NCBI GenBank assembly: GCA_019347575.1
Contig: JAHWKY010000012.1
Coordinates: 34,648-66,647, forward strand
Direction: 5' to 3'
DNA: 32,000 nucleotides
Origin: Actinomycetota bacterium
Lineage (GTDB): Bacteria > Actinomycetota > Nitriliruptoria > Nitriliruptorales > Nitriliruptoraceae
Shown here: piece after piece, positions 9,550 through 27,549 of the stretch
How positions within the stretch are numbered: position 1 is the first letter of the stretch
Layout of the letters: each line of letters starts with the position of its first letter
The notes under the pieces: generated by a model
What the model was told of the DNA's origin: nothing
Seen by the model: the letters and a program-made list of their open reading frames with translations, nothing else
Databases searched by the model: none
Program-made: the position numbers and the translations under genes

Positions 9550-10308
9550 TCATTGACTGACACGACCGGGCACGTCGTGCGGTGGCCACTCACCATCATC
9601 GGAGAGAGGCAAGCGGGCTAGTTCTGACCGGCGTCGCCGCCAGTCAGGCATCGCGGCGGTCAAGAGGCGCTCGAAGCGCTCGGTGTGGCCTGGCTCCACC
9701 AGATGCAGCATCTCATGAAGGATCACATACTCGAGGCACGGACGAGGCTTCTGCGCAAGCTGGAGGTTGAGCCAGATCCTCCTGGCCTCCGGGTTGCAGG
9801 TCCCCCACTTCGTTCGCATGCGACGGACGCGCCACTCGACCTGTGCGACGTCGAGCTGCTCTTCCCACTTGTTGACCAGAGCTGGCACAGCGACTTTCAA
9901 CTCGCGACGTCGCCACTCCTCCAAGATCATCGCGCGCTCATCGCGGTCTGCTGCGGTCGGGACCGTCAAGAGCAAGATTCCACGACCGGCGATCTCGACC
10001 CCCGACGTCTTCCCACCCGAGACGACCCTCAGCCGGTGTCGCTTTCCCCATACATAGTGACTCTCGCCTGTGACCATCTCCCGAACTGATTGCCGAGGCT
10101 GGGCGAGCAGCTCATCGCGCTGGTCTCGGATCCACTTCAGCCGGTCCACGACAGCCATCCGCACCGCGTCCTCGTCCATGTGCTCGGGTGCGGAAACACG
10201 GATCAGACCATCCGGTGGGTAGACCGCGATGTGCAGGTTCTCGATCTGCTTGCGGACCACGTGAACGGTGAGGTCGCTCACCGTGATGGTTAACCGCTCA
10301 GTACTCAT
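9550..10308 (-). CDS. DUF45 / M48-family (YgjP/SprT-like) zinc metallopeptidase
   Basis: HEMLH (HExxH) lies in ..EYVILHEMLHLVEPGHTERF.. ATG 10308 overlaps the hsdR stop by 11 nt. The annotated 10365 start would lie inside hsdR. Confidence 0.8.
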   Translation of the reverse strand: MSTERLTITVSDLTVHVVRKQIENLHIAVYPPDGLIRVSAPEHMDEDAVRMAVVDRLKWIRDQRDELLAQPRQSVREMVTGESHYVWGKRHRLRVVSGGKTSGVEIAGRGILLLTVPTAADRDERAMILEEWRRRELKVAVPALVNKWEEQLDVAQVEWRVRRMRTKWGTCNPEARRIWLNLQLAQKPRPCLEYVILHEMLHLVEPGHTERFERLLTAAMPDWRRRRSELARLPLSDDGEWPPHDVPGRVSQ

Positions 10309-13300
10309 CCTGGGCCTTGATGATCTCGAACAGCTCTTCGGTGTTGTACTGGGCACGCTGCTCACTGCTTAGGACTGCATCGAGCGCCCTGTGGATCTCA
10401 CGCTGCTTCATGACGCTGCTCCGCCAGCCATCGCGCTTTGTACCGCGCACGGCTTCATCGATCGCCAGGGCCAGCTGCTCGTTGCTGTCGAGGTTGTCGT
10501 ACAAGGCCCGCCTTGCAGGGCTGTCGATCGGCGCCGGATAGGAAGCGCCCCCTGGTCGAGTGACCTGGCCTGCGATTTTCTCCAGCTCCTTGAGGTACTG
10601 CCGGTAGTCGAACGCACGGCGACGGCGCTCTTCGATGACGTTGTCAAGCAGGACAGACATCCGGTCGTAGTACTTCGGATTGACAGGCCGCTCGTCAACG
10701 ATGACCCGTCTGACGTTGTTGACGATCGTTTCAGCGGAGAGGTCATCGTCGTCGCGGATGCCCTCGGGCAAGGATGCGATTGCGCCGGCCGCGCCACGCT
10801 CGACGATCAGCTGCACGAGGCCCTGCTCATCGAAGTCGGACAGGACCTGCGAGTCCTCGGCCTCGATGTAGCTGTCGAGCAGGTGCCGCATGTCGGGCTC
10901 GTAGACCTTGAGGTCGACATAGTCGCCGCTGGCGAGCTTGACCTCACGGCGGACGTTCTCGTAGTGCTTGACCTCCGCGGCTATCTCTGCCGCTTCCTGT
11001 CCGCTGTAACCGGCCTCGTCCATCTCGTTGGCCAGGTCCGCGTAGGCGCGGACGAACGCCCCCACGTGCTTGTAGAGCTTGAGTCGCTTGGGTTCGTTGG
11101 CCTTCAGCTGCTGCGCGTTGCCACTGTCTTCCGCGCAGAAGTAGTGCAAGTAGTCGCTGGTCGACGGCTGTTGACCGATAGGCTCACAGAGGGCCTTCAC
11201 GATCTCGCGTGTCTCGTCGAGTCGTTCTCGGGCCTGGTCGAGCCGGTTCTTGATGAGCCCGGCGACGTCCTCGTGGTCGTAGTCCTCGAAGGCTCCGGAC
11301 GTGTAGACGTGGACGGCAGACTCCAGGGACTTGAACAGGTCCTGGTAGTCGATGATGCAGCCGTACTCCTTGTCTTCACCGTCCAGTCGGTTGACGCGGC
11401 AGATGGCCTGAAACAGGCCGTGGTCGGCCATCGGCTTGTCGATGTACAGGTAGGTCGCTGCCGGCGCGTCGAAGCCAGTGAGGAGCTTGTCGACAACGAT
11501 CAGCAGCTTCATCTGGCCGGGCTGTTCGATGAACTTCTGCTTGACCTCGTCCTCGAAGTCCTCGACGCGACCGACCGCATCGTCTTCGCTGATGTCGAAG
11601 TAGTCGGCGACCATCTTGCGATAGGTGGCGTACTTCTCCAGCGCTTCGGTCTCGCCTTCGCCGGTCTCCTCACCCTTGATCGTGTCGGCGGTCGGTCGGT
11701 AGCTCGTGACGATCGCGCACTTGTGCTTCAGCGATGTGCGACTGAACGCCTCGTAGAACTTGCAGGCTTCGTAGATGGAGGAGCAGACCAGCAGCGCGTT
11801 CCCGCGGTCGTTCATCAGCCGGTCGCGGGTGGCCATGTCGAACATGATGTCCGCGACGATCTTGTCGAGGCGCGACTGGGCGGTCAGCACCTTCTGCAGC
11901 GTCCCCCACCGGCGCTTGAGGTCAGCCTTGGCGAGGTCAGACAACCCCTTGGTCTTGGCCTCGAACCAAGCGTCGATCTTGCCCGGCGAGGTGATCCGCT
12001 GGTCGATGTCGCGTGCTTCGTAGCGAAGGTCGAGGATGACGCCGTCCTCTACGGCTTCATCGAACTTGTAGGTGTGGATGTAGGAGCCGAACACCTCGAT
12101 GCTGCGCGCCTTGTCGTCCTTCAGCAGCGGGGTGCCGGTGAACCCGATGAACGTCGCCCCGGGCAGCAGTTCACGCATGTCGGCGTGCAGCTTGCCGGAC
12201 TGGGTGCGGTGGCACTCGTCGACGAACACGAACAGGTTCCCGCGGGCCTCGAACCCAGAAGCGATCGCACGCTCGACAGCTTTGGCGTAGTCGGCTTCGT
12301 CACCGGTGCCGACGCCGAATTTGTGCACGAGGGTGCACAGCAGCCAGTTGGCGCCATCACGTAGCTGTTTGATGAGGTCGGCACCGCTGGCGGTGCGGTA
12401 GATCTGCTCGTCGACGCCGTAGAACACCTTCTCGATCTGCTCGTCGAGCTCTTCGCGGTCGGTGACGATCAGCACGCGGGCGTCTTCGACGTTCTCCCGG
12501 ATCCACTTGGCGAGCCACACCATGCTCAGGCTCTTCCCGGAGCCCTGGGTGTGCCACAAGATCCCGCCTTCGCGGTCCTTGACGCGCTGCTGGCCGGCCT
12601 TGACGCCGAAGTACTGGTTGTGCCGAGCGATCTTCTTGGTGCCAGCGTCGAACACGATGAAGTCGTGGATCAGTTCGAGCAGCCGCGCCTGGTTGCAGAG
12701 GACAAGGGCCGCGTCCAGCGGGCTGGCGAGCTCTGACGGTTCTTTCCACTCGAGCCAGTACTTCTGCGGTGTCTCGATGACGGAGTAGCGCAGCCCTTCG
12801 GTGTCGTTGCCGGCCATGACTAGCTGGACGGTGGAGAAGAACGGCTGGATGAACTCCGGCTTCTGGTTGTCGAGCATCTGCCGGACGCCCTCGGTGACCG
12901 ACACGGTCGAGCGCTTCAGTTCGAGCACAGCGACGGCGATCCCGTTGACGTACAGCACGATGTCGGGGCGCTTGTCGTGCTTGCCGGCGACGGTGACCTC
13001 TTCGGCGAGAGCGAAGTCGTTGTTCTCAGGATCGTCCCACTCGATGAAGTTGAGGTGCTGGGCTTGCTTGCCAGCTTCGACCTGGGCGTCGTGCCCGTAG
13101 CGCAGGAGGAAGTAGACGTCGCGGTTCGCGTCGTACAAGCTGCGGCCACCGCCTACTGCCTTCGCTCGACGCAGCGCCTGGAGAGCCTGGTTGATCAGCC
13201 CGTCTTCGTAGCCCTGGCGCCGGAGCCAATCGGTGAGCCGCGGTTCGATGACGTTGCTGTTGTCGTCGGCGTCCTTGAGGTTGCCGAGGTAGGTGTAGTC

Positions 13301-13369
13301 GAGATCGTCGCCGAGCAGTTCGACGACCCGGTTCTGTACGCGGCGTTCGTGTTGGCCAACGTCGCTCAT
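10298..13369 (-). CDS. hsdR: Type I restriction enzyme R subunit
   Basis: N-terminal nuclease motif PDIVLYVNGIAVAVLELKR, helicase motif I TQGSGKS and motif II FVDECH. The product is 1023 aa. There is an ATGA overlap with hsdS. Confidence 0.95.
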   Translation of the reverse strand: MSDVGQHERRVQNRVVELLGDDLDYTYLGNLKDADDNSNVIEPRLTDWLRRQGYEDGLINQALQALRRAKAVGGGRSLYDANRDVYFLLRYGHDAQVEAGKQAQHLNFIEWDDPENNDFALAEEVTVAGKHDKRPDIVLYVNGIAVAVLELKRSTVSVTEGVRQMLDNQKPEFIQPFFSTVQLVMAGNDTEGLRYSVIETPQKYWLEWKEPSELASPLDAALVLCNQARLLELIHDFIVFDAGTKKIARHNQYFGVKAGQQRVKDREGGILWHTQGSGKSLSMVWLAKWIRENVEDARVLIVTDREELDEQIEKVFYGVDEQIYRTASGADLIKQLRDGANWLLCTLVHKFGVGTGDEADYAKAVERAIASGFEARGNLFVFVDECHRTQSGKLHADMRELLPGATFIGFTGTPLLKDDKARSIEVFGSYIHTYKFDEAVEDGVILDLRYEARDIDQRITSPGKIDAWFEAKTKGLSDLAKADLKRRWGTLQKVLTAQSRLDKIVADIMFDMATRDRLMNDRGNALLVCSSIYEACKFYEAFSRTSLKHKCAIVTSYRPTADTIKGEETGEGETEALEKYATYRKMVADYFDISEDDAVGRVEDFEDEVKQKFIEQPGQMKLLIVVDKLLTGFDAPAATYLYIDKPMADHGLFQAICRVNRLDGEDKEYGCIIDYQDLFKSLESAVHVYTSGAFEDYDHEDVAGLIKNRLDQARERLDETREIVKALCEPIGQQPSTSDYLHYFCAEDSGNAQQLKANEPKRLKLYKHVGAFVRAYADLANEMDEAGYSGQEAAEIAAEVKHYENVRREVKLASGDYVDLKVYEPDMRHLLDSYIEAEDSQVLSDFDEQGLVQLIVERGAAGAIASLPEGIRDDDDLSAETIVNNVRRVIVDERPVNPKYYDRMSVLLDNVIEERRRRAFDYRQYLKELEKIAGQVTRPGGASYPAPIDSPARRALYDNLDSNEQLALAIDEAVRGTKRDGWRSSVMKQREIHRALDAVLSSEQRAQYNTEELFEIIKAQDEY

Positions 13370-14589
13370 GCTGCTCCCTCCTCGGCCGCTAGGCGTGTGC
13401 GTCCGGTGAGGAGCTCCCGGATCATCCCTTGCTTCACGGCACGCGTCTTCTCAAGCCTCCCCCGAAGCGCCGTGATCTCATCATCCATGTCCGCGAGGAT
13501 CTCGGTGATTGCCCGCTGCTCAGCCAGCTCAGGTACGCGTAGGGCCATCACCTTGAGGTCTGATGTGCCGACCTCGTCGAAGGTCGAGCCTGACCCTAAG
13601 GCCTCGATGTCCCGGCGCCGTTGCGTCAGCAAGAAATAGACGAACGTGGGGTCTACATCCGAGCCGCAGACGAGAGACTTGAACCCCTGGTTCGTGGCGA
13701 TCGGTTGCTTCGCGAGTTTCAACTCTCCGATGGTGGCACGGGTGCAAAGGAGCAGCGCGCCCTCGGGCAGTAGACGGGCAGATGAAGCCTTCAGGCCCTT
13801 CTTGGTGATGGTTCGAGACGTAGCATCTAGGTACCGGCCATGCCCGGCTGTGATGTCAGTCGGCGTACACCACGGGATGTCACCGTCCCAGTAGGCCGCG
13901 ACACCCGTGTCCGGTGTTCCTCCGGGAACGACGTCGCATAGGTCCCGGAGGGGACGTTCACGCCAGTCCTGGCCAAACGAGGGGAGGCGCAGTGCTTCCG
14001 TCAGGAGCAACTGGCGCGTCGCTGTTAAGACCCCCTGCTTCTTGTCGATGAGGCGTTCGAGCGACTCGATCAGGTCGTCGGTATCTCCAAGAGCTCCCAC
14101 GATCCGCGCCTGCTCCGTTCGGGGCGGGGCCGGTAGCGGCACACGCTCGAACTTCTCCTTCGGCAGGTGAGCGATGCTGGTGCGGGCTGTGAACTCGTCG
14201 AGATGGTCGGTGTCCTGCCAGAAACTGAGGTAGTACATGAGCAGTTCGGGGCGATAGGAGCCTCTGCTGCGCAGACGGTGGATCGCCTTCTGGAAGTAGC
14301 ACTCATCCAGAGACGCATCCCAAATCGCGGCGCGTCCGACCTCACCTCCCTCACAGACCAGAAGGTCTCCAGGCTGGAGTCGGTAACGGGCCACGTCGTT
14401 CGCCGTGAAAGGTGCAGTTGATACCGCATCGAGGTCGATGCGGCCCCACTGGACTGCTGCGTTACCCACGTATGGTTTGTCGGTCCCGGTGCTGCGCGCG
14501 GCGTCGAGCATCTTCCCGAGTTCGAGAGTGAACTCCTCGCCGACTGTGCTCATGGTCCAGTCTGATGGAAGGTCTGTCTGGCCACTCAC
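13366..14589 (-). CDS. hsdS: Type I R-M specificity subunit with two target-recognition domains
   Basis: 407 aa with two TRD-like halves, each followed by a conserved helical spacer (..LPAPPRTEQARIV.., ..VPELAEQRAITEIL..). GTGA overlap with hsdM and ATGA overlap with hsdR. Confidence 0.9.
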   Translation of the reverse strand: MSGQTDLPSDWTMSTVGEEFTLELGKMLDAARSTGTDKPYVGNAAVQWGRIDLDAVSTAPFTANDVARYRLQPGDLLVCEGGEVGRAAIWDASLDECYFQKAIHRLRSRGSYRPELLMYYLSFWQDTDHLDEFTARTSIAHLPKEKFERVPLPAPPRTEQARIVGALGDTDDLIESLERLIDKKQGVLTATRQLLLTEALRLPSFGQDWRERPLRDLCDVVPGGTPDTGVAAYWDGDIPWCTPTDITAGHGRYLDATSRTITKKGLKASSARLLPEGALLLCTRATIGELKLAKQPIATNQGFKSLVCGSDVDPTFVYFLLTQRRRDIEALGSGSTFDEVGTSDLKVMALRVPELAEQRAITEILADMDDEITALRGRLEKTRAVKQGMIRELLTGRTRLAAEEGAA

Positions 14590-17129
14590 ACTGGCACCTC
14601 CACGCCCATCGCTTCGAGGTGCTTGGCGACACGCGCCGAGAGGTCCTCTGTCTCCGCGACGAGCTCAGGAAGCGTGGTGTCGTAGCGCTGCACGAGCTGC
14701 GCGATACGACCGGCCAGGCGAGACACAACACCGTCGATCTCCCTCGACAGCGCCGAACGGAGCGACGAGATCCACTTATCGTCCACGGTCAACCCGCGGA
14801 CCGCCGACTCGTCGAGCTCCTCGTACTTGCCCATCGCTGCCTTGATGAGGTCCGTCTCGGTCTCTCGGAGCGCAGCCTTCTCGGACGTCGCCCCGTCACT
14901 CAGCGCGAGCAACCGGTGCAGAATGTCTAGCTCGGCGAAGTAGCCCTCAGGGTCCTCGACACCGGCCTCCCACGTTCGCGTGCCGAACTTGGTCTTGGCG
15001 ATGCCTTTCGCCTGCTCGTATTCAAGGCTGTCGTCCGGGAACGCGTCGAGGATCAGATCCTTCAGCTCAGCCACGCGGTCCTGAGCGTTGCCTTTCGTCA
15101 CCCCGTTCGAGCCCTCGAGGCCGTCCAGAGCACCGCCTTCGACAGCGTGCTCCTCCTCGAACTCCGCGAGTTCAGCCTCCGCCGTTGCGACCGCTGCCGA
15201 CAGTTCGTCGAGCTGCTCCTGACGGTCAGGGAAGTAGCGGCCGATCAGCAGGCTGGGCGGCAGGAGATCAGCGACGTACTGGACCTTCTTCCGGCCCTTC
15301 TTGATCGCGAAGTCCGCGGCCTCCCTATCGCGCGCCTCCCTGAGCGAACGACCGACCTCCCAGCCCTCGGACACGATGAGGTAGACGTCGTCCTGCATGT
15401 CCGCGTCCCAGAAGTCCATGAACCGCTGGTAGACGTCGTAGCGGCTGACCAGAGGCACGTCGGCGAACCGGTCGAGCAGATCCTCAGCCAGCTCGATCCG
15501 CAACTCCTTCGGCGAGGTGTCCTCATCGATAGACCTGAGCTTCTCACGGTGGGCGTCAGCCCACTGCTCGAACCTCTGGCGGACCTCGGCGGCGAACGCT
15601 TCGAACTGCGGGTGGGACTCCACGGTCTCGCGGACGTGGTCCGCTTCGACGGCGGGTTGCACGTAGCCGTCTCGGCCGGCCGGCTCAAACAGCACCGTCC
15701 GCAGGTCGGGCATGACCTGCCAGTAATGCTCGAGTTCGTCGACGTCGCGGCGGGGGATCCCACCATGCAGGTGGGCGGTCAGGTCGTGGATGTCCTCGCG
15801 GTCGCTGGAGTCGATGTAGCGGGAGATGTTGAGGTTGAAGGCGTTCGCGTCGCTGGCTATCTCCTCGAGCGGTACGAGCCGGGAGTACCCGTCGATGTCC
15901 CGCTGGGTGCGGAAGACGTCGACGATCCTGTGGATGTCCTGCTCACGCAGCCGGTTCTTGTTGCCGTCCCTGATGTACCCGCGGCTGGCATCAATCAGGA
16001 ACACGCCGTGGCGCGTGCCGGCTTCCTTCTTGTCGACCACGACGATGCACGCGGGGATACCAGTTCCGTAGAACAGGTTGGCGGGCAGGCCGATCACGCC
16101 CTTGATCAGGCCGCGCTGCAGCAGGTTGCGGCGAATCACTGCTTCGGCGTTACCGCGGAACAGCACACCGTGGGGTAGGACGACCGCACCGGTGCCAGTG
16201 CTCTTCAGCGACTTGATGACATGAAGGAGAAAGGCATAGTCGCCGTTGCGGGTTGGCGGGACGCCGTACTCGAACCGGTTGAAGTCGTCGTTCTTCGGGT
16301 CGATGCCGTTCGACCAGGACTTCGTCGAGAACGGCGGATTGGCGACGACAAAGTTGAACGTCTTCAGTCGGCCCTTCTCGATGAACTCCGGCGCGGCAAG
16401 GGTGTTGCCTCGAGCAATGTCGTGGGTCGGCTGGCCGTGCAGGAACATGTTCATCCTCGCCAGGGCCCAAGTCGCGTTGTCAATCTCCTGTCCATACACG
16501 GTGACGTTGCCGCCAGCCTCATCGGCCGCCTTCAGCAACAGCGAGCCAGAGCCAGCGGTGGGGTCGTAAACGGTCTCGTCACGCGTGGTGTGCGGTCCGA
16601 TGCCAATAACCTGGGCGATGATCCGGGACACCTCGGCAGGGGTGTAGAACTGGCCCTTACTCTTTCCGGCCTCGCTGGCAAAGTGCCGCATGAGGTACTC
16701 ATAGGCGTCGCCGAGTAGGTCGTCGCCGGCGGCGAGGTTGTCGCTGAAGTCGAGCCGACGGTGGAAGATGTTAACTAGGGCAGACAGCCGGTCGACCTTG
16801 TCCTTGCCGCTGCCGAGCTTGGCGGAGTCGTTGAAGTCGGCCAGGTCGATGACGCCCTGCAGATCATTGGCCTCGGCCAGCCGACCGATCGCCTTGTTGA
16901 TCTTGTCGCCGATCTCCTTGTCGCCCACCAGGCTGTGGATGTAGTCGAACGAGCCCATTTCGGGCACGACGATGAGGCTGTGTGGGTCGGCGGCATGCTT
17001 GTCGGAGACGTACTTCACGAACAGCAGCGTGAGGACGTAGTCCTTGTACTGGGAGGCGTCCATGCCGCCACGGAGCTCGTCGCAGCTGTCCCAAATCGAC
17101 CGGTACAGATCGGACTTCTTGATTGCCAT
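14586..17129 (-). CDS. hsdM: Type I R-M N6-adenine DNA methyltransferase subunit with a long C-terminal extension
   Basis: N-terminal HsdM-type region, AdoMet motif VYDPTAGSGSLL and catalytic motif VVANPPFS. At 847 aa it has a helical extension of roughly 300 aa or more beyond the methylase core. Confidence 0.9.
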   Translation of the reverse strand: MAIKKSDLYRSIWDSCDELRGGMDASQYKDYVLTLLFVKYVSDKHAADPHSLIVVPEMGSFDYIHSLVGDKEIGDKINKAIGRLAEANDLQGVIDLADFNDSAKLGSGKDKVDRLSALVNIFHRRLDFSDNLAAGDDLLGDAYEYLMRHFASEAGKSKGQFYTPAEVSRIIAQVIGIGPHTTRDETVYDPTAGSGSLLLKAADEAGGNVTVYGQEIDNATWALARMNMFLHGQPTHDIARGNTLAAPEFIEKGRLKTFNFVVANPPFSTKSWSNGIDPKNDDFNRFEYGVPPTRNGDYAFLLHVIKSLKSTGTGAVVLPHGVLFRGNAEAVIRRNLLQRGLIKGVIGLPANLFYGTGIPACIVVVDKKEAGTRHGVFLIDASRGYIRDGNKNRLREQDIHRIVDVFRTQRDIDGYSRLVPLEEIASDANAFNLNISRYIDSSDREDIHDLTAHLHGGIPRRDVDELEHYWQVMPDLRTVLFEPAGRDGYVQPAVEADHVRETVESHPQFEAFAAEVRQRFEQWADAHREKLRSIDEDTSPKELRIELAEDLLDRFADVPLVSRYDVYQRFMDFWDADMQDDVYLIVSEGWEVGRSLREARDREAADFAIKKGRKKVQYVADLLPPSLLIGRYFPDRQEQLDELSAAVATAEAELAEFEEEHAVEGGALDGLEGSNGVTKGNAQDRVAELKDLILDAFPDDSLEYEQAKGIAKTKFGTRTWEAGVEDPEGYFAELDILHRLLALSDGATSEKAALRETETDLIKAAMGKYEELDESAVRGLTVDDKWISSLRSALSREIDGVVSRLAGRIAQLVQRYDTTLPELVAETEDLSARVAKHLEAMGVEVPV

Positions 17130-17372
17130 CTAGTGCACCCCCGCGATGTCAACTGGGCGATTGCGTACAAACGGGCCAATAGGCGTTACAGTCCTCGCAT
17201 CCCACCGCAGCGTGTCGCCGCTGGCGATGCGCAGGTTCACCCGGTCCCGAATTCGTTAGCCACTCGCGCGAGAAGCAGGTACCAGCGCTCCCGACCGTAG
17301 GTGGTAGCCGCAAGGCGCGGTCCCTGACGCCGGAAGTGCTCTCAGGTGCGCGTGACGCAAGTGCGAAGGTCA

Positions 17373-18008
17373 TCACCGGGGCTTCCTCCGTCCGGCTGCC
17401 GTTGTCGATGTCGGCCTCTGGATGGATCGGGATGAGCCCGGATCCGGATCGTCGACCACGGCAAGGTCAATCTCGAGCGCTCGCAGTTCGTTGACCTCAT
17501 CGGCCAGCTGTCTCAACTCGCGGTGGACACGATCAAGCTCCGACACAGCATCGTTCGTCTGATCCTGGTGGTCGAGGGAGGGCACCGGGACCTGCAACTG
17601 TGCGACGTCCCGAGCTGCAATCCGCGGTATCCCCGATCCGCTAGATCGGACCTCTACCTGACCCTGGAAGTACGACGATCGGGCCCACACGCCTAGCCAG
17701 CCAGGCGTGACCGGTCCTCCGGCGAGCGCACGCAGGACCACGCAGTCGCTACCGACCACCGCGCCGCGAAGTTCCTCGTCGACCACCCGTGCAGCCCCAG
17801 GTCTGAACGAGACCGCGAGAACAACGTCTCCAGGTTCGAGATCGTACGCCCAGCGCGCCTCGGGTTCGGGAAGGTACTGGGCCGGTGCGTCGTTGTCCGC
17901 GAGTGCCTTGGCGTTCAAGAACCTTGTCCCCGTGTCCGCCAGGTGGTCGTAATCGATCCGAACGCCGCGAGTGATGTCCGCCACGGACTGGAGCGGGACG
18001 CGTCTCAT
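17373..18008 (-). CDS. Half-size (single TRD) type I-like specificity subunit
   Basis: One TRD (LQSVADITRGVRI...) followed by the conserved VPVPSLDHQDQ...ELRQLADEVNELR helix. ATGA overlap with the upstream methyltransferase. Confidence 0.7.
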   Translation of the reverse strand: MRRVPLQSVADITRGVRIDYDHLADTGTRFLNAKALADNDAPAQYLPEPEARWAYDLEPGDVVLAVSFRPGAARVVDEELRGAVVGSDCVVLRALAGGPVTPGWLGVWARSSYFQGQVEVRSSGSGIPRIAARDVAQLQVPVPSLDHQDQTNDAVSELDRVHRELRQLADEVNELRALEIDLAVVDDPDPGSSRSIQRPTSTTAAGRRKPR

Positions 18009-19579
18009 CGCGGACCTCCCGCAATGTCCTGCAGCACGTCGAGCGCGCGACGAACCTTCGGCAGGTCCTCAGCGATACCGGCTCGGAGTACTACGGCACG
18101 CGCTCGGAGAGCATCGACGTCGAAGCCCTCCATCGGGTCTCGGTACCGGCTCGGTGTGATGACCGAGCCTTCCTCCAGGTCCTCTCGCGACAACCGGAAG
18201 GCTCGGCCTGAATGCTCCCTCGGTATCGCCGCCCCGGAGCGAGCGAGGTGCACCAACTCGACGATCAGATCGATCTCATGCTCTTCCAGCTCAGTTGCGT
18301 GGCGCCCGGCGGTTCCCAGGTCCGAGGCGTCGACGAAAAGAATCTCGTCGGTGCTCGCTTGCTTCCGGCTCGAGGACCGCAGAAGCCAGAGGGTCAACGG
18401 AATCGATGTGTTCCTTCGTAGGCGCTCCGGAAGTTGGATGACACCTTCGATGCACCCATCGTCGAGCATCCCCGCCCGGATCTCGCCTTCGCGACCTCCA
18501 GCCCAAGTCGACCTCGGCGGCTGGAGAACGACCGCGCGCCCTGTAGGGCGAAGTGCATGCAGCGCGAGCTGCAGCCACGCAAAGTCGGCAGAGCTCGGAG
18601 GGGGCGCTCCATACGTCCAGCGGTCGTCGAGGTAGAGCTCGGCGTCACCCCACTTCCCGACTCCGTAGGGCGGGTCTAGGACGACCGTGTCTGCCGCCGG
18701 CAACTCCTCGGGCGGCATCCGCAAGCTGTTGCCGACGCGCAGATTCGCGTCAACGTCGTAGATGAAGAACCACGCGCGGGCGTGCCTGATGACGTCCTCG
18801 TTGATGTCGACTCCGAAGAGGGTCGTCGGCGGCTCACTCCTCTCGGCAGCCACTGCAGCCATGAGGAGCAGACCGCCGTTGCCCGCGGCAAGGTCCGCGA
18901 CGGTCTTACCCAGCGGCTCGGCTAGCCGAACCATGAGAAGCGCGAGGTTATCGGGCGTCGAGTACTCCTGCGCGAAGCGGTCTGCTCGGTCCATACGGTC
19001 CGTGAGTTCATGGAAGAGCTCAACGTCAGCAGCTTCCTCAGACAACGCTGCTCGCAGCGCGATAAGGAGCTGGCGCACGGCGTGCCCTGGCGCCTCCGTG
19101 ACTGAGAACCCATCCACGAGTAAGCCCTGGAGTTGTGGGTTGCCCTCCTCTAGGCGACGTCCCACGGCGGCGAGCCGTTCCAACAGCTGCTCGTCCGCGA
19201 CATCTTGCACCGATCCCCACTGATCTTCGGTGGCCAGGTCGAGTCGGCCACTCGCCGCGCGCTGACATGCGACGAGGTACACGAGCGCCGAAAGCATGAA
19301 GTGTCGGAGCTCCTCGGGTGTCCAGCTTCCGCGGACCGCATCGGCGAGCCGCCAGAGGACGGCACTTGGTGGCACGGGGCCGTCGATCTTCTCGTTCTCG
19401 AGGAGCCAGCGCTCGACCTCTGCAAGCGAGAAGAGGGCCCCGCCCGCTGTCTGGAGTCGCGGGGCCGGGAAGTCTTCGTGGCGCTTCCGCCAGTTAGATA
19501 CAGCGGAAGAGCCGACGTCAGCGATCTCGGCGACGTCGCTCAGGCTGACGTAGACAGCCTCTCCGGCGTTGCGGACCAT
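18005..19579 (-). CDS. N6-adenine DNA methyltransferase with an N-terminal excisionase/MerR-type HTH
   Basis: HTH VSLSDVAEIADVGSSAVSNWRKRHEDFPAP, motif I VADLAAGNGGLL and motif IV VVLDPPYG. The start overlaps the NYN gene stop (TGATG). Confidence 0.85.
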   Translation of the reverse strand: MVRNAGEAVYVSLSDVAEIADVGSSAVSNWRKRHEDFPAPRLQTAGGALFSLAEVERWLLENEKIDGPVPPSAVLWRLADAVRGSWTPEELRHFMLSALVYLVACQRAASGRLDLATEDQWGSVQDVADEQLLERLAAVGRRLEEGNPQLQGLLVDGFSVTEAPGHAVRQLLIALRAALSEEAADVELFHELTDRMDRADRFAQEYSTPDNLALLMVRLAEPLGKTVADLAAGNGGLLLMAAVAAERSEPPTTLFGVDINEDVIRHARAWFFIYDVDANLRVGNSLRMPPEELPAADTVVLDPPYGVGKWGDAELYLDDRWTYGAPPPSSADFAWLQLALHALRPTGRAVVLQPPRSTWAGGREGEIRAGMLDDGCIEGVIQLPERLRRNTSIPLTLWLLRSSSRKQASTDEILFVDASDLGTAGRHATELEEHEIDLIVELVHLARSGAAIPREHSGRAFRLSREDLEEGSVITPSRYRDPMEGFDVDALRARAVVLRAGIAEDLPKVRRALDVLQDIAGGPR

Positions 19580-20073
19580 CAGGCGGCTCTCTGTTCCACA
19601 GCCGGAGCCCCCGGGTCACGATCGAGATGGAACGGCACAACGCGGTTCGCCGCCATCCTCAACCGCCTGGACAGGCTCTCCAGAGGAGCCACAACCGTGA
19701 CCGTCACGCCGCGACGCTGGAGGAAGCCAACCGCATCGACGAACAAGCCATCGCCTGAGGCAACCACGACGTGGCCGAAACGTGAGTCCACGCGCTCGCG
19801 CAGGGCCACTTCGGCGAGAGCGAGGTCGGCACCCGAGGTTCCGCGCCGGACGAGGAGCCTCGCAGAACGCCAACTCAGGCCCACTGACACGCCAATCGAG
19901 GGGTTGCACGCCACCACGATGTGATCGCCGTGGCGCAGGATGCGAAGGCGACGGTACGCAGTAACGCAGCGGGCGACGTCGTGGTTCGTCGGCGAGCCAG
20001 AGCCAACGAGGTTCTCGACGTCGACCAAGTGAAGGGTTCTCGGGGCAGTTGCGGTGTCCATGACGTGAACCAT
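19579..20073 (-). CDS. NYN (LabA-like, PIN-related) nuclease domain protein
   Basis: LHLVDVENL, GADLALAE and VASGDGLFVD match the NYN/LabA acidic motifs. The start is probably ATG 20073 or 20061 rather than TTG 20097. Confidence 0.7.
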   Translation of the reverse strand: MVHVMDTATAPRTLHLVDVENLVGSGSPTNHDVARCVTAYRRLRILRHGDHIVVACNPSIGVSVGLSWRSARLLVRRGTSGADLALAEVALRERVDSRFGHVVVASGDGLFVDAVGFLQRRGVTVTVVAPLESLSRRLRMAANRVVPFHLDRDPGAPAVEQRAA

Positions 20074-20085
20074 ATCGTGCCGTAT

Positions 20086-20123
20086 CTGTGAAATCAACTC
20101 ACAGCTCTGACTTCATTTCACAG
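20086..20123. promoter_or_regulatory. Inverted repeat in the AT-richer divergent promoter region (candidate operator)
   Basis: ctgtgaaat (20086-20094) and atttcacag (20115-20123) form 9-bp perfect arms. A second 6-bp inverted repeat, acacaa/ttgtgt (20157-20176), overlaps the start of the plus-strand operon. Confidence 0.4.
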
Positions 20124-20172
20124 GCGGTTCGTCCAGGGTCTCTTGCTATCCGAATAACACAACGATAATATT

Positions 20173-20613
20173 GTGTCTGTGATACCGGACTTTGGCGGGG
20201 CCAATTTGCCCCCGGGTGTACATGCGGCCTCGTGGCACGAGGTCGATCAGCGCTTCGGCTGGAACCAACGGCGGCGATCGCTACTCGAAGGGCTTCGAGA
20301 CGCGCTCGACGAGCTAGCACGGGCGGGCTGCAGGAGAGCGTGGCTCGACGGCAGCTTCGTGACCGCGAAGGAGCAGCCGGGGGACTACGACCTCGCTTGG
20401 GACCCGACCGACGTCGACCTCACTTCCCTCGATGCGGTGCTCCTTGACTTGGATCCACCGCGCGAAGGTCAGAAGGCGAAGTACAGGGGCGACCTCTTGC
20501 CGAACATCATCGAGTCCGACAGCGGCATGCCGTTGCTGGACTTCTTTCAGCAAGACGCGGTGACTGGGCGCAAGCGAGGGATTGTCGAGATCGATTTGGA
20601 GGGACTCGGATGA
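20173..20613 (+). CDS. Minimal nucleotidyltransferase (Pol-beta fold, DUF6932-like)
   Basis: WLDGSFVTAKEQPGDYDLAW fits the G-S...D-x-D NTase motif. 146 aa. The stop overlaps the next start (ATGA). The start could be GTG 20173 or GTG 20179. Confidence 0.6.
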   Translation: MSVIPDFGGANLPPGVHAASWHEVDQRFGWNQRRRSLLEGLRDALDELARAGCRRAWLDGSFVTAKEQPGDYDLAWDPTDVDLTSLDAVLLDLDPPREGQKAKYRGDLLPNIIESDSGMPLLDFFQQDAVTGRKRGIVEIDLEGLG

Positions 20614-22052
20614 TCAAGAACGACCGGCAGTTCGGGATCGTCCGCAGCAGGTCGGAGCGCCTCGAGCGCCTTCAGGATGACCTGCTGGAACGTCTTGGAC
20701 GTTCCCCCGCGGACGCGAGCAAGCTTGAGCTTGAGCTCAGAGCCACTCGTGCAGAGATCCGACGCATGCGTGGAGAGCTCGGGGACTACCAACTCCTGAA
20801 GGAAGGCAAGGCCCCCATCGGGTCGGCCCGAACCCTTGAGGACGTATCACGACTTCTCGTTCGTGCGCGCATCGCTGCAGGACTTACGCAAGCCGACCTC
20901 GCCGAACGATTGGACCTGAAGGAACAGCAGATCCAACGGTACGAGGCGACCGACTACGAGTCGGCAAGTCTCAGCCGACTCATAGAGGTGGGCGAAGCTC
21001 TCGATCTCCAGCTTTGCGCCGAGGCGGGTTCGGCGGGAGCCTCCTTCGACGCGACCGGCTGGCTTCGGAACTTGCGAGACGACGGGATCGACGAATGGTT
21101 TCTCGACCGGGGCTTCGGCGCCGTGGACGCGAACGACCCCGACTCGGTAACGAGAACGATCGCGCGCTTGTCTCACGTCTTCAGGCGCACACCTGAAGAC
21201 GTGATGGCTGGACGGGTTGTAGACCCGGGATTCGAGGCGGTTCCCGCGGCGTTCAAGCGCTCCAAGAGAGCCAGTCGTCCGCGAATCGCAGCGACCAGTG
21301 CGTACGTCGACTACCTGGTCGGCCTCATTCTCCGGGCCACACCACCCGCGGCGACAGACCTGCCGGCCAACCCTGTCGAGGTGCATCAGCGTCTGGGCGG
21401 ACTGGGGCGCCCCGTGACCTTCGAAGCGGCAGTCAACTTCTTCTGGGCGTCCGGTGTCCCCATTCTGCCCCTGAGCCTCTCAGGCGGTTTCGACGCTGCA
21501 CTGTGGCGCCGAGACCAGCGAGATGTCGTGGTCTTGAACTCCACTCGGGAGCTTGAGTCTCTGTGGTTGTTCATCCTGTTGCACGAAGGTGGCCACATCA
21601 GCGATCCAGAACTCGCGGGCACGCGCTGGCTGGAGACAGACCCTGGCCACGATCCGGACATGGCGGCTGAGCGCGAGAGACATGCAAATGAGTGGGCTTC
21701 CGCCACAATCTTCGGGGGGCGCAGCGAAGCGCTGTTCGACGAAGTGAGGCAGAAGGCCGAGAACCGGCTACCGATGATGCAACGAGCGGTCCGGTATGTA
21801 GCCCGTCACGAGAACGTCGATGTAGGACCGCTCGCTCTCAACGTCGCTTACCGTCTTGGCGAAGAAGGAGTGGACTGGTGGGGAGCCGCGATGAGCCTCC
21901 AGAGCGGAGACGGAAGGCCGTGGCAGACTGCCCGAGACGCGCTCGTTGCTCGTCTTGACATGTCAGCTCTCAAGCCGCTTGATGCCGATCTGCTTGCCCG
22001 GGCGCTTGACCTCTCACCGAGCGACGGAATTGATTCAGGAACCGAACGATGA
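20610..22052 (+). CDS. XRE-family HTH fused to an ImmA/IrrE-type HExxH metallopeptidase
   Basis: An N-terminal helical segment, then the HTH RIAAGLTQADLAERLDLKEQQIQRYE, then LFILLHEGGHISD (HExxH) in the C-terminal half. ATGA overlaps on both sides. Confidence 0.8.
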   Translation: MIKNDRQFGIVRSRSERLERLQDDLLERLGRSPADASKLELELRATRAEIRRMRGELGDYQLLKEGKAPIGSARTLEDVSRLLVRARIAAGLTQADLAERLDLKEQQIQRYEATDYESASLSRLIEVGEALDLQLCAEAGSAGASFDATGWLRNLRDDGIDEWFLDRGFGAVDANDPDSVTRTIARLSHVFRRTPEDVMAGRVVDPGFEAVPAAFKRSKRASRPRIAATSAYVDYLVGLILRATPPAATDLPANPVEVHQRLGGLGRPVTFEAAVNFFWASGVPILPLSLSGGFDAALWRRDQRDVVVLNSTRELESLWLFILLHEGGHISDPELAGTRWLETDPGHDPDMAAERERHANEWASATIFGGRSEALFDEVRQKAENRLPMMQRAVRYVARHENVDVGPLALNVAYRLGEEGVDWWGAAMSLQSGDGRPWQTARDALVARLDMSALKPLDADLLARALDLSPSDGIDSGTER

Positions 22053-23110
22053 TGATCCAGACGCCACTCAACGGAGCCGTCTGGGTGCACGCTGGCCTCA
22101 AGCCGCCAGATCACATCGGGCGGGTGGCAACCGCCGCCGGTGGTGTCGTTCTCCAAGGCCCGCCGAAGTACCGACAGGCTCGCGAGGTCCTGGAGTCCGG
22201 TATCCCCGCGATGCTGCAGCACGATGCGGATCTCGAACCAGCACCCCAGCCCACACTCTTTGGTCCCGATGAGTCCTGGTTAAGCGAACAGCACTCGTGC
22301 GTGGTCGTAAGCAGCCGCGCAGGCTGGGTGCCGCCGCCTTCTACTGAGGGACGTGAACGGCTCCGGCAGGCCGTCCTCACTTCGCGGACGAGCCACGCTC
22401 ATGCGACACGGTCGGAACCGAGTCGGCCATTCGTAGCCATGGTCGCACTGTCCCACAAGTGGTTGACGTCGCGGGAGTCCCGCAGGGAAGTGATCTCCGC
22501 GCTTCGATCCGTCGGCGCCCCGATCGGGCTGATGCTCGAGAAGGCCATGGATCCCCTCGACACCGTCCAGGCAGTGGAGGGGCTCGTCACGCTCGTGACC
22601 GAGCTTGAGAGCGTCGCTGTCTTTCGGTGTGATCACGGCGCTCTCGGAGCAATGGCGTTCGGAGCGACGGGAGGCTCTATCGGGATCGGAACCTCGACTC
22701 GCCACTTCCTCGACCCCGATGACAACTCCTGGGCCGATTTCACGGATCGCACCCCACGCGTGTTCCTTCCCTTCATCATGGGATGGTGGAAAGGCTCGCG
22801 CCTCGCGTACTACGAGGAAGACCCGATGTTTCGGTCTTGCTCATGCCCCGTCTGCCGGGGCGCCAGCCTGGCTCGCTTCCAGGACGAAGCCCTGCGGGCG
22901 GAGGCCGACGCTCACTCCGTCGCGTGTTGGGCTGATCTCGCGCGCCGGCTTCAGGACGAAGATCCCGGACACCGCGCAGACGCGTGGCTGCGACTCTGTC
23001 AGACCGCGTACGACAATCTTGATGCGATCGAAGACACGAGCGGATTGCTTCAGGCACCGTCGAGGCAGCTCAAGGCCTGGCTTCGCTTCGCCGGAGTTCC
23101 AGCGGTTTGA
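22049..23110 (+). CDS. TGT (tRNA-guanine transglycosylase) / DpdA-like protein
   Basis: CSCPVCRGASLARF (encoded from 22838) parallels the TGT zinc motif CxCxxCRxxSxA, with a His 20 residues after the third Cys. FGATGGSIGIGT parallels the TGT G-x-A-I-G-G-L-S-V-G-E strand. Similarity was judged by eye only. Confidence 0.5.
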   Translation: MMIQTPLNGAVWVHAGLKPPDHIGRVATAAGGVVLQGPPKYRQAREVLESGIPAMLQHDADLEPAPQPTLFGPDESWLSEQHSCVVVSSRAGWVPPPSTEGRERLRQAVLTSRTSHAHATRSEPSRPFVAMVALSHKWLTSRESRREVISALRSVGAPIGLMLEKAMDPLDTVQAVEGLVTLVTELESVAVFRCDHGALGAMAFGATGGSIGIGTSTRHFLDPDDNSWADFTDRTPRVFLPFIMGWWKGSRLAYYEEDPMFRSCSCPVCRGASLARFQDEALRAEADAHSVACWADLARRLQDEDPGHRADAWLRLCQTAYDNLDAIEDTSGLLQAPSRQLKAWLRFAGVPAV

Positions 23111-24144: not shown

Positions 24145-24753
24145 GTGGACGAGGCGACAGAAGCGATCCGAGCGCAGTTGCGCGCTGCGCGGCAGCGGGC
24201 CGGCCTGACCCAGGATCAGCTCGCGGCGCGGATGGGCTGCACGCAGTCCGCGGTGTCCGACCTCGAGGGTGGGCGGACCCGGCCGCTGTACCAGACGGTC
24301 GCCCGCAACGCCGCCGCGCTCGGCGGCGAGGTCACACTCGCCCTACCCGGGGCCGATCCCCTCGCACGGGCGCGTGCCGACATCGAGCGTTCCCTCACCG
24401 AGGGGGACCCATCCCGCGCCTTCCGCGCCGTTCTCCGGATGTTGTGCGACCTCGACCGGCGGGATCGGATCGACGCATCCCGTGCCCTCCGTCTCGAACC
24501 GGCAACGACGGGATCGCCGCGGTGGGACGCACTCCTGGCCGCCGCCGTCGAGCACGCGACCGCACGGATCGGCGTCGGTCCACCGTCGTGGACCGCCGCC
24601 CCGTCGAAGTTCCTCGACCGTTGGTGGTTCCCCGTCGAGGACATGATCGGTCGCCTCCCGACCCGACTCGCGGCCTACCTCCTCGCCAACGCCCCCGGCG
24701 AGTTCGCGGCACGCGGCGTCTTCGTGGATCGCGCGAGTCTGCGGACCTGGTGA
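24145..24753 (+). CDS. XRE-family HTH protein with a C-terminal extension (antitoxin-like)
   Basis: LRAARQRAGLTQDQLAARMGCTQSAVSDLEGG. GTG start at 24145. Confidence 0.7.
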   Translation: MDEATEAIRAQLRAARQRAGLTQDQLAARMGCTQSAVSDLEGGRTRPLYQTVARNAAALGGEVTLALPGADPLARARADIERSLTEGDPSRAFRAVLRMLCDLDRRDRIDASRALRLEPATTGSPRWDALLAAAVEHATARIGVGPPSWTAAPSKFLDRWWFPVEDMIGRLPTRLAAYLLANAPGEFAARGVFVDRASLRTW

Positions 24754-24838
24754 CGTCCGCCGGCGCGAACCAGTCCGGGTCGCCCGCCAGCAACCTGCGC
24801 GCAGGCGCTGCAGGGTCGGGGGCCTGCCTCCGCCGATC

Positions 24839-25090
24839 TCAGCTCGCCCGGGCCGTCGGCTCGCTGTGGCGGTAGAGGGTCTCGGGGGAGATGTCCGATC
24901 CGTTCGGCCACACCAGCGTGCCGAGCTCCGGATCGACGCGAACCGCACGGAAGAGCTCGTCATCGGTGGCGATGTCCTCGAACGCGCGTCCCCAGAGGAA
25001 GCGGGACGACGCAGGCGTGGTGGAGTGCCTCGCGTCGGGCAACGACCCATCGACGCACGTGCCGCCCGTGACGCGGAGGCAGCGTTCCAA
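24839..25090 (-). CDS. DUF2442 family protein
   Basis: FEDIATDDELFRAVRVDPELGTLVWPNGSDISPETLY closely matches the DUF2442 C-terminal consensus. The N-terminal half is less typical. Confidence 0.6.
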   Translation of the reverse strand: MERCLRVTGGTCVDGSLPDARHSTTPASSRFLWGRAFEDIATDDELFRAVRVDPELGTLVWPNGSDISPETLYRHSEPTARAS

Positions 25091-25208
25091 CGATCACCCT
25101 CCGGGCGCGGCATCCACAGCCCAGCCACCGATGGATGCGCGGCCCTGCGTTCGAATCGGTGAACATCGGGGCCCCGACGGAGCCGACACACGAGGAGCAG
25201 AAGCGCCG

Positions 25209-25721
25209 ATGTTCGAGACCCGCGAGGCCGTGATCGATGCACTCGAGCGACTCGCGAACGCGCTCCACGATGAGCGACTCGAGGGCCGGATCTTCGTCGT
25301 CGGCGACACCGCGATGACGCTGGCCTACGGTCGTGACGATCACGCCGGAGACATCGAGGCGCTGTTCTCGCCTTCGGACATGGTCAGCGAGGTAGCGGCG
25401 CGGCTGGGGAGCGAGCACGGGTGGGGCGAGACGTGGCTGACCGACGCCGTCGTGGGAGGTGCTTTCCGGAACGAGTCGGACGCGACGACGCTGTTCGCGC
25501 GGCGAGGACTGACCGTGCAGGTCGCCTCACCCCGCTACCTCTTCGCGATGAAGGCCGTCACGGCCCGGATCGAACGCGACGCCGCTGACCTCGCCGCGCT
25601 GTACCCGCTCTGCGGCTTCGTTGACGTGGAGGCCGCCATCACGCACGTGCGCGCGACGGCGCCTGCCGGCCTGCTGCCTCCGAAGGGCGAGATGCTCATG
25701 CGGGCGGTCTTGGGCCCGTGA
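25209..25721 (+). CDS. Nucleotidyltransferase-fold protein (DUF6036/AbiEii-like, toxin-like)
   Basis: Internal ATG 25209 begins MFETREAVIDALERL... VVGDTAMTLAYGRDDHAGDIEALF resembles the G-x-x-A...D-x-D/E NTase motif. The upstream part of the 24891 ORF is S/R/P-rich and was rejected. Confidence 0.55.
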   Translation: MFETREAVIDALERLANALHDERLEGRIFVVGDTAMTLAYGRDDHAGDIEALFSPSDMVSEVAARLGSEHGWGETWLTDAVVGGAFRNESDATTLFARRGLTVQVASPRYLFAMKAVTARIERDAADLAALYPLCGFVDVEAAITHVRATAPAGLLPPKGEMLMRAVLGP

Positions 25722-25927
25722 CGTGGTCGCGTTCGCTGTTCGGGAGCGCTCTACAGCGGCAGCTTCCTCAGATCTGCCGATCGGTGCCACCGGTGAGGTT
25801 GGTCCATGTCCGTTCGCACATACGGCATCACGGGAGGGCTCATCCTGAGCGCACGAGGACCGCTTCATGTTCTATCGGTCATGCGAGGGTACTCTGGGGC
25901 GGCCCCGCATCCCGAAGGCGATGTCGC

Positions 25928-26191
25928 ATGAACGACCGGACATACGATACGGCGGCTGGGCGGTTAGGTGACCAGCTCCGCCGACGTCGGCGCGCGTTGC
26001 ACCTCACCCAGGAGGAGGTCGCCGAACTGGCCGGCACCACTCAGCGCACCGTCTCGGTGCTCGAGTCGGGCAAGCCCACCGCCCGCCTCGACGTCCTGGT
26101 CGCCGTCGCCGAGGCGCTCGGCCTGCAACTGGTGGCGCTGCCCCACGACGTGGTCGGGCGGCTGCGCGTCGACGACGAGACCCCGTCGTGA
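25928..26191 (+). CDS. hipB: HipB-like XRE HTH antitoxin
   Basis: ATG 25928. LRRRRRALHLTQEEVAELAGTTQRTVSVLESGK. The stop overlaps the hipA start (GTGA). Confidence 0.8.
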   Translation: MNDRTYDTAAGRLGDQLRRRRRALHLTQEEVAELAGTTQRTVSVLESGKPTARLDVLVAVAEALGLQLVALPHDVVGRLRVDDETPS

Positions 26192-27423: not shown

Positions 27424-27474
27424 CCGGCATGCACACCGCGTGCGTCGGCACACCGGAGCGGCGGAACCCCCGAG
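27373..27474 (+). repeat. Direct repeat copy B (hipA 3' end plus downstream); partner at 3529-3631
   Basis: See copy A. It is in the same orientation and about 86 percent identical by hand alignment. Confidence 0.85.
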
Positions 27475-27549
27475 CTGGCACATCGAGTTGAGAGCGGGTC
27501 ACCGAGCGAACGAACGGCCCCTCGGGCAACCTGAACCAGGATGAGCACG

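Follow-up and report, generated by a model that had tools for sequence, protein, structure and literature searches.

The triad of nuclease, methyltransferase, and specificity genes

We analyzed a stretch of 32,000 nucleotides (hereafter the window) of contig JAHWKY010000012.1 (assembly GCA_019347575.1, positions 34,648 to 66,647 of the forward strand), derived from a member of the Nitriliruptoraceae, phylum Actinomycetota. The minus strand of the window carries three open reading frames (ORFs) joined by stop-to-start overlaps (19579-20097, 18005-19579, and 17373-18008), which encode a predicted NYN nuclease, an N6-adenine methyltransferase fused to a helix-turn-helix (HTH) domain, and a half-size specificity protein with a single target recognition domain (TRD). 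Judged by its recurrence among genomes, this triad is a conserved, uncharacterized cassette. The arrangement of three overlapping genes had been read from the sequence in an initial annotation, and both the ORFs and the letters at the two junctions, TGATG (19581-19577) and ATGA (18008-18005), agree with it. The components of the cassette are listed below.

19579..20073, minus strand: NYN (LabA/MARF1-type PIN-like) nuclease, 164 amino acids (aa) from ATG, assigned by a Pfam match above the cut-off, an AlphaFold (AF2) model, and invariant signature residues
18005..19579, minus strand: HTH-fused HsdM-like gamma-class N6-adenine methyltransferase, 524 aa (N6_Mtase 3.7e-44, HTH_17 8.7e-5)
18665..18676, minus strand: motif IV DPPY (residues 302-305), intact in the window methylase
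17373..18008, minus strand: half-size (single-TRD) HsdS-like protein, 211 aa, with a basic disordered tail (PADLOC Specificity_I)
20086..20123, minus strand: palindrome of 38 nucleotides (nt), 5' of the likely NYN start, with 19-nt arms that are 84% complementary

Relatives of the NYN protein were collected by a word-indexed protein search, which returned 76 of them, and by scanning one genome per species, which placed relatives in 169 genomes; 80 loci (designated by the letter L and a number) were fetched and examined by ORF calling and iterative profile searches. Counts of motifs and overlaps given below refer to 38-39 family members, and those of overlaps to 38 non-redundant loci.

The product of the first gene matched the Pfam NYN family (PF01936) with an E-value of 5.5e-7 and 30.6 bits, above the gathering score of 24.2, as well as the PADLOC NYN model (2e-8), and its homolog from locus L051 reached 28.7 bits against the Pfam family. 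The AlphaFold model, based on a 25-sequence alignment (predicted local distance difference test score, pLDDT, of 90.9), matched best in the PDB the ribonuclease NYN domain of MARF1 (5yaa and 6fdl; E-value 7e-6, TM score 0.66-0.73) and the uncharacterized LabA-like protein 2qip, which is in line with the NYN/LabA-type nuclease named in the initial annotation. The protein is encoded with an intact predicted active site. Because none of the six residues D14, E16, N17, D46, D79, and D104 (numbered from M13) varies among the 38 cassette-linked NYN proteins, the nuclease is, as far as sequence comparison can tell, under strict constraint in the cassette. RNA is its presumed substrate. Translation more likely begins at the ATG at 20073 (164 aa, MVHVMDT...) than at the TTG at 20097, since the former start is called in the relatives L089 and L090 and is conserved in the alignment, and the latter lies inside the palindrome.

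The methyltransferase has the motif order typical of the gamma class, with DLAAGNGG (motif I, residue 229) ahead of DPPY (motif IV, residues 302-305). The HTH domain is of the excisionase type and occupies approximately residues 10-62 (window positions 19394-19552); its match to HTH_17 lies below the Pfam cut-off (23.1 compared with 27 bits), the same region matches the PADLOC mad1 profile (3.8e-7), and the signature SAVSNWRKRxxDFP is conserved in 39 of 39 family members. Motif order and the family-conserved HTH signature together confirm the earlier assignment as a gamma-class DPPY methyltransferase with an N-terminal HTH. Because residues 75-447 align with residues 12-410 of the neighboring HsdM (24% identity), the protein corresponds, by this alignment, to a complete though divergent HsdM-like protein preceded by an HTH. 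The possibility that the protein lacks an HsdM_N-type domain was rejected, as residues 75-200 align to the HsdM N-terminal region. The nearest solved relatives are M subunits of type I systems, namely PacII (7vru), EcoR124 (7bst), and EcoKI.

The specificity (S) protein matched Pfam Methylase_S weakly (E-value 0.0035, below the cut-off), and its PADLOC Specificity_I match was stronger (6.8e-15, residues 11-175), in agreement with the single-TRD protein originally described. The homolog from L001 matched Methylase_S with 1.8e-13 over one full TRD. An AlphaFold model of the half-size S protein, based on 10 close homologs, was unusable (pLDDT 43.9), and the assignment rests on the profile matches.

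Within the triad itself, HsdR was found neither in the ORF list nor by Pfam and PADLOC profile searches; the triad by itself thus does not qualify as a type I restriction-modification (R-M) system. The hsdM, hsdS, and hsdR genes of a neighboring system lie downstream on the same strand and form a complete set of their own, separated from the cassette by a gap of 243 base pairs (bp), in agreement with the initial description of a module without its own HsdR located upstream of a complete hsdMSR operon. These neighboring features are as follows.

17130..17372, minus strand: spacer between cassette and hsdM, 243 bp
14586..17129, minus strand: HsdM of the adjoining complete type I system, 847 aa (HsdM_N and N6_Mtase 1.7e-99; TIGR00497 above the cut-off)
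13366..14589, minus strand: HsdS, full-size with two TRDs, 407 aa (Methylase_S 1.9e-34, two stretches)
10298..13369, minus strand: HsdR, 1023 aa (TIGR00348 1.2e-153; PADLOC REase_I 1398 bits)
9550..10365, minus strand: YgjP-like metallopeptidase overlapping the end of hsdR (Pfam YgjP-like 4e-54)

The last of these genes is also the last of a conserved seven-gene block and is kept in the relatives L088-L090. Its product (9550-10365, minus strand) belongs to the YgjP-like/SprT-like class of metallopeptidases, found here alongside type I genes.

Conservation and evolution of the cassette

An HTH-methylase gene lies directly downstream of the NYN gene in 34 of the 80 loci. The initial annotation had been offered on the understanding that it would fail if the NYN gene were not conserved beside such M/S pairs; the association turned out to be conserved. 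Most hosts belong to the Actinomycetota; a few are Gemmatimonadota, and one is a member of the Chloroflexia. In 36 of 38 loci, the stop codon of the NYN gene overlaps the start codon of the methylase gene (ATGA or GTGA in 29), and the three cassette genes are predicted to be co-transcribed throughout and translationally coupled. The S protein is either separate (approximately 190-225 aa) or fused to the C-terminus of the methylase, giving a protein of approximately 650-740 aa. Among the first four contigs looked up, three show the order NYN, methylase (with S separate or fused), and hsdM-hsdS-hsdR, and the fourth (L005) carries the cassette alone, near BREX genes. Searches of the literature on NYN and type I R-M revealed no description of a conserved NYN/HTH-M/half-S cassette, and relatives of the NYN protein were not found in GenBank phages or in IMG/VR viral contigs, which we regard as neutral evidence.

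The cassette was also found on plasmids of cultured Dietzia, Mycolicibacterium, and Corynebacterium glutamicum (in the last case p48A, NZ_CP014329). In these records, its parts carry no labels other than 'NYN domain-containing protein' and 'N-6 DNA methylase'. A plasmid of Rhodococcus qingshengii encodes NYN and a fused methylase; the stretch retrieved stops at the first position of the record and does not include the downstream genes. The cassette of pCETAM stands alone, with no type I system.

Downstream of NYN genes that lack a methylase partner, we found genes encoding a PCMT-type methyltransferase, a WhiB-HTH protein, a beta-lactamase, thiamine pyrophosphate (TPP) enzymes, and an unknown protein of 285 aa. 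In L036 and L040 (10445-11731) and in L069 and L074 (10474-10899), a distant NYN gene is followed by a gene for a PCMT-type protein methyltransferase or a WhiB-HTH protein (1-nt overlap). About a dozen other methylase-less NYN loci share a divergently transcribed gene for a 285-aa protein with no assigned family.

Compared with the nuclease, the methyltransferase shows a different pattern of conservation. Motif IV follows the canonical form (D/N/S)PP(Y/F/W) in 16 of 39 cassette methylases and departs from it in the remaining 23, most often as DPPL (14 cases) and also as DTPL, EPPA, HGPS, HAPF, DAPF, DPSY, and EPPF; the aromatic residue is missing in 17 of the 39. In HsdM proteins encoded at the same loci, motif IV is canonical in 27 of 28 (NPPF or NPPY). 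Loss of the motif IV aromatic residue is a hallmark of non-catalytic paralogs, as exemplified by inactive METTL14 (EPPL) compared with METTL3 (DPPW). By this analogy, the DPPL variants would be inactive, and many of the proteins labeled 'methylases' in the cassette are probably without methylation activity. Constraint on catalysis seems to be relaxed for the methylase and not for the nuclease.

The S proteins of the cassette and of the adjoining type I system also differ in their mode of divergence. The window and three relatives with methylases that are 84-89% identical gave the following ranges of pairwise identity.

NYN: 82-88%
HTH-methylase: 84-89%
Cassette S (S2): 69-89%
HsdM: 81-88%
HsdR: 89-92%
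YgjP-like peptidase: 79-87%
HsdS: 28-53%

The same tendency was visible in the pairs L016/L025 (S2 82% compared with HsdS 30%) and L026/L030 (S2 88% compared with HsdS 29%). An internal control is provided by L051 and L071, in which the HTH-HsdM is part of a full type I system; there the S protein shuffles, with 22% identity while M retains 83%. Judged by these identities, the cassette S protein is free of TRD swapping among close relatives, whereas the adjoining HsdS swaps its TRDs. Type I systems carry an S protein with two TRDs that are exchanged, whereas the cassette S protein has a single TRD within 211 aa. A recent duplication of the neighboring hsdM and hsdS genes as the origin of the cassette was rejected, as the methylase shares 24% identity with HsdM and S2 shares 21-23% with HsdS.

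The relationship with type I systems was assessed for the 34 genome cassettes.

Separate co-directional type I system follows: 24 of 34
Cassette methylase is the M subunit of a complete type I system (L051, L071): 2 of 34
No type I system nearby: 5 of 34
Contig too short to judge: 3 of 34

A separate co-directional type I system accompanies 24 of the 29 cassettes considered assessable. In most loci other than the window, the gap between the cassette and the type I genes is 9-100 nt, or the genes overlap. The partner HsdR proteins fall into at least five families sharing less than 35% identity, and the partner genes occur in the orders M-S-R and R-S-M and in double-M operons. Pairwise identities correlate within the cassette (Spearman coefficients of 0.68 for NYN and methylase and 0.66 for methylase and S) and hardly at all between the cassette and HsdM (0.07 for NYN and 0.06 for the methylase). 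By this measure, the three cassette genes evolve together and separately from the type I module, and because at least five HsdR families are involved and there is no co-divergence with HsdM, the comparison indicates that it has repeatedly recombined in front of unrelated type I systems. Such recombination points to a generic functional link to type I restriction and argues against the specific contacts that sharing of HsdR would need.

Genes for a relaxase, a type IV secretion system (T4SS) coupling protein, an integrase, and RepA are frequent neighbors. In L051 (756-7459) and L071 (445-7155), the genes encode NYN, HTH-HsdM (with NPPF), a full HsdS, and HsdR, which is a PrrC-like layout; this form may represent a PrrC-type ancestor or cousin of the proposed dedicated decoy and could be an evolutionary intermediate. 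In L006, L022, L028, and L067, the partner type I system has two tandem hsdM genes, similarly to the non-canonical M1M2S (PacII-type) arrangement. In L088 (4074-8369), the cassette adjoins genes for ThiF/E1-like, Prok-E2, and multi-ubiquitin proteins, a bacterial ubiquitin-like conjugation cluster, together with T4SS coupling genes; an intact NYN ORF at approximately 8500-9000 in this locus was missed by the gene caller.

Upstream palindrome and surroundings of the cassette

The near-perfect palindrome at 20086-20123 spans the TTG at 20097. An alignment of four relatives showed that its GTGA/TCAC half-sites are invariant and its flanks vary, and its RNA fold was modestly better than that of shuffled sequences (z = -2.4). 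The HTH may bind the element as an operator, or the element may form a 5' hairpin. CTGTGA/TCACAG half-sites recur at 20177-20182, and a second inverted repeat, ACACAA/TTGTGT, lies at 20157-20176 in the shared promoter region. On the coding (minus) strand of the 243-bp spacer, terminator and sigma-70 scans revealed no terminator-like or promoter-like site, and a search of 16900-20700 with Rfam returned nothing.

A divergent operon (20173-23110, plus strand) encodes a DUF6932 protein (PADLOC candidate PDC-M63A), an XRE-HTH protein of 480 aa that contains the metallopeptidase motif HEGGH, and a protein of 353 aa without an assigned family; the same trio flanks the cassette in the relative L089. 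On the other side, two proteins with NucS_C-type nuclease domains, one of them fused to DUF5655, are encoded at 2607-3506 (plus strand) and 8310-9398 (minus strand). Between them, an operon at 3927-7299 (minus strand) encodes proteins of 676, 165, and 291 aa with no Pfam match. These genes may also act in defense. The region 24145-28807 is rich in toxin-antitoxin genes, encoding an XRE HTH protein (24145-24753), a HipB-like HTH protein with a HipA kinase (25718-27423), and a Fic protein with the HPFDDGNGRTGR motif (27599-28807). GC content is 0.59-0.66 across 2000-24000 compared with 0.69-0.74 in the flanks, which is consistent with a horizontally acquired defense island at 2000-24000.

Comparison with known systems and possible functions

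Among known systems, the Ronin system of Escherichia coli ECOR55, composed of RonA, HsdM, and HsdS, is comparable with the cassette in several respects (Silas et al., bioRxiv 10.1101/2023.04.06.535777). The 61-aa RonA toxin is neutralized by HsdMS and triggered by ArdA, Ocr, and Aop1, and the methylase activity is dispensable; the system resides beside composite R-M or BREX systems, and its upstream non-coding region is essential for an unknown reason (bioRxiv 10.1101/2023.04.06.535777). Similarly to Ronin, the cassette tightly links a small effector to hsdM- and hsdS-like genes in a module without hsdR and is found beside R-M or BREX genes (L005); an upstream non-coding element may matter in both. 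Dispensability of the methylase, demonstrated for Ronin, is suggested for the cassette by the decay of motif IV. In contrast to the 61-aa membrane peptide RonA, the cassette effector is a 164-aa soluble NYN protein, and no RonA homolog is present, so the cassette is not a member of Ronin. It also differs in the conserved N-terminal HTH of its methylase, in an S protein that is half-size or fused to M, and in its hosts, which are Actinomycetota and a few other phyla rather than Enterobacteria.

PrrC comprises an ABC-ATPase and a HEPN-type anticodon nuclease encoded inside an hsd operon (EcoprrI), and the R-M proteins presumably keep it latent. The cassette resembles it in that a predicted RNA-cutting effector is embedded with type I genes and would likewise be restrained, and L051 and L071 share its layout; in most loci, NYN instead has an M/S pair of its own, distinct from the functional type I enzyme. 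Pfam, PADLOC, and NCBIfam profiles detected no PrrC-type ABC-ATPase or anticodon-nuclease domain in the region, so the cassette is not PrrC.

Operons joining PIN-superfamily nucleases with HsdM and HsdS have been described, three of them without a candidate restriction enzyme (Matelska et al., 2017, PMC5499597). These operons are usually not conserved between related species and are mostly of VapC/toxin-antitoxin type (PMC5499597). In contrast, the NYN cassette is conserved in dozens of species, with a fixed order and overlapping genes.

AhdI, a type IIH system, combines an M2S2 methyltransferase with a conventional DNA endonuclease, and its methylase is obligatorily active. The cassette shares with AhdI a type I-like M and a half-size S that would dimerize and read a palindromic bipartite site. 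It differs in that a methylase motif that is degenerate in much of the family and a nuclease with a MARF1-like/2qip-like fold take the place of the active methylase and the DNA endonuclease.

With respect to MADS (mad1-mad8), the HTH resembles Mad1, the methylase resembles Mad2, and the S protein resembles half of Mad5, as judged by PADLOC and NCBIfam profiles. MAD6, MAD7, and MAD8 are mandatory in the model of the authors who described MADS (bioRxiv 10.1101/2023.03.30.534895). Membership was rejected, as the weak matches to mad1, mad2, and mad5 lie far below the family cut-offs and no mad6-8 occur among the neighbors; moreover, MADS has no NYN component. By analogy, the cassette would belong with R-M-derived guard or decoy modules carrying an abortive effector; it is neither a self-contained type I nor a type IIH system.

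The gene content, order, coupling, and conservation patterns can be read directly from the loci, and a module of restraint and bait fits them best, because the nuclease is invariant, the M/S pair is not under R-M-type selection, the genes are tightly coupled, and the cassette travels with type I systems. The explanation that we favor, with somewhat less confidence than an even balance would allow, is that the cassette is a second-line abortive 'anti-anti-restriction' module of the Ronin/PrrC kind that travels with type I systems on mobile elements. In such a module, HTH-M and half-S would assemble as M2S2, resembling a type I methyltransferase core, and would keep NYN inactive. A DNA-mimic anti-restriction protein (ArdA- or Ocr-like, from a phage or plasmid), or another type I inhibitor, would bind the look-alike and release NYN, and the freed nuclease would cut RNA, halting both the cell and the invader. 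Methylation by the cassette would be dispensable for the alarm role, which would explain both the decay of motif IV in many members and the static TRD. The HTH and the upstream palindrome would probably autoregulate the operon. A more elaborate form of this proposal, which we put forward still more tentatively, is that the HsdM/S pair is a sensor of sequence or shape that gave up methylation and couples invader recognition to an RNA- or single-strand-cutting NYN, the signal being either an anti-restriction protein that mimics DNA or conjugative DNA that enters unmodified or single-stranded. The cassette would then represent a widespread actinobacterial 'decoy immunity', an effector-swapped, independently evolved counterpart of Ronin that guards at least five type I families and travels on plasmids and integrative and conjugative elements (ICEs).

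Several points weigh against this explanation. Complex formation, the toxicity of NYN, its RNA substrate, and the trigger are parts of the proposal that we infer, and the inactivity of the DPPL variants rests on the analogy with the EPPL of METTL14. The window methylase keeps DPPY together with a plausible motif I and hence may be an active enzyme. The HTH is universal in the family, yet it has no role in the Ronin model, and a regulatory role would also fit the fixed position of the cassette in front of type I genes of the same orientation. In addition, 46 of the 80 NYN-relative loci contain no methylase and no consistent partner; because of these loci, the NYN family is not obligately restrained by M/S and may be non-toxic, a caveat that applies to every toxin-type explanation.

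Of the other explanations, one that we consider unlikely is that the cassette is a control or establishment module of the downstream type I operon, in which HTH-M/S would act as a repressor or epigenetic switch at a fixed site, NYN would trim the polycistronic mRNA, and restriction would be delayed in a new host. The cassette always lies upstream of type I genes and in the same direction, with short gaps or overlaps, no terminator was detected in the 243-bp gap of the window, the HTH and the palindrome half-sites are conserved, a static TRD fits a single fixed target, and the loci reside on plasmids and ICEs beside relaxase, T4SS coupling protein, and RepA genes. However, there is no type I system to control in the case of five genome cassettes, L005, and pCETAM, the partner systems range over five unrelated HsdR families and both gene orders, a 700-aa M-S scaffold with a nuclease is far heavier than known C-protein controllers, and the palindrome is documented in four close relatives only. 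A role as an epigenetic regulator, one of the options in the initial annotation, may apply particularly to the window methylase, which keeps DPPY. Rather improbable, in our assessment, is that M and S form an active methyltransferase, either an orphan or a second one (M2S2 with a palindromic N6-methyladenine motif), that sets an epigenetic mark or borrows the neighboring HsdR, NYN being a passenger or minor accessory. The intact DPPY and motif I of the window protein, the bona fide type I M subunits among its closest solved homologs, and the HTH-HsdM that is the sole M of a complete type I system in L051 and L071 all speak for such activity, whereas the non-canonical motif IV in 23 of 39 methylases, with the aromatic residue missing in 17, and an S protein that is static, unlike real HsdS, speak against it; the overlap of NYN and methylase genes in 36 of 38 loci argues that NYN is no passenger. 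The five HsdR families and the lack of co-divergence with the type I module count against it as well. Such activity may hold for the window, where DPPY is intact; taken over the whole family, the data disfavor it as the function that is conserved. On the same grounds, the earlier suggestion of a second specificity module sharing the neighboring HsdR is disfavored (Spearman coefficients of 0.06-0.07, at least five HsdR families, two gene orders), and a methylase without catalytic activity could not protect the host's own DNA.

The idea that NYN is the effector of a non-canonical R-M-like or abortive system was one of three options offered, without a choice among them, in the initial annotation, and it gained from the coupled and conserved triad, the invariant NYN, the often degenerate motif IV, the static TRD, and the Ronin-like architecture. 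An AhdI-like (type IIH) restriction system, with M and half-S as protection and NYN as the DNA endonuclease, is disfavored and appears very improbable. An M protein with a half-size S and a separate small nuclease reproduces the layout of AhdI, and PIN-like folds include DNA nucleases. Operons of PIN-like, HsdM, and HsdS proteins without an evident restriction enzyme were also noted in a previous survey (PMC5499597). However, a decayed methylase motif beside an invariant nuclease site would be self-lethal, the TRD is not diversifying, the nearest structural relatives of NYN are RNases or LabA-like proteins, and the nuclease has only 164 aa, without a DNA-recognition module. We also see little likelihood that the cassette is an addiction (toxin-antitoxin-like) module stabilizing a plasmid or ICE, with NYN as the toxin, M/S as the antitoxin, and no sensing of invaders. 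Location on mobile elements, tight coupling of the genes, and an HTH on the putative antitoxin that recalls autoregulated toxin-antitoxin systems would suit such a module, but it leaves unexplained the type I methyltransferase-like partner and the adjacency to type I systems in 24 of 29 cassettes, and solitary NYN homologs are common.

Immunity of the decoy or guard type, which punishes anti-restriction proteins, is to our knowledge represented to date by a handful of enterobacterial examples (PrrC, PARIS, Ronin, and EcoR22I). If the abortive 'anti-anti-restriction' explanation is true, decoy immunity would prove to be a general strategy, with cores of type I methyltransferases co-opted as sensors on more than one occasion. 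Current annotation labels the parts of the cassette as 'N-6 DNA methylase', 'hypothetical protein', and 'NYN domain-containing protein'. Given its presence on plasmids of Corynebacterium glutamicum, Rhodococcus, and Mycolicibacterium, the cassette could influence how efficiently transformation and conjugation proceed in industrial and model strains.

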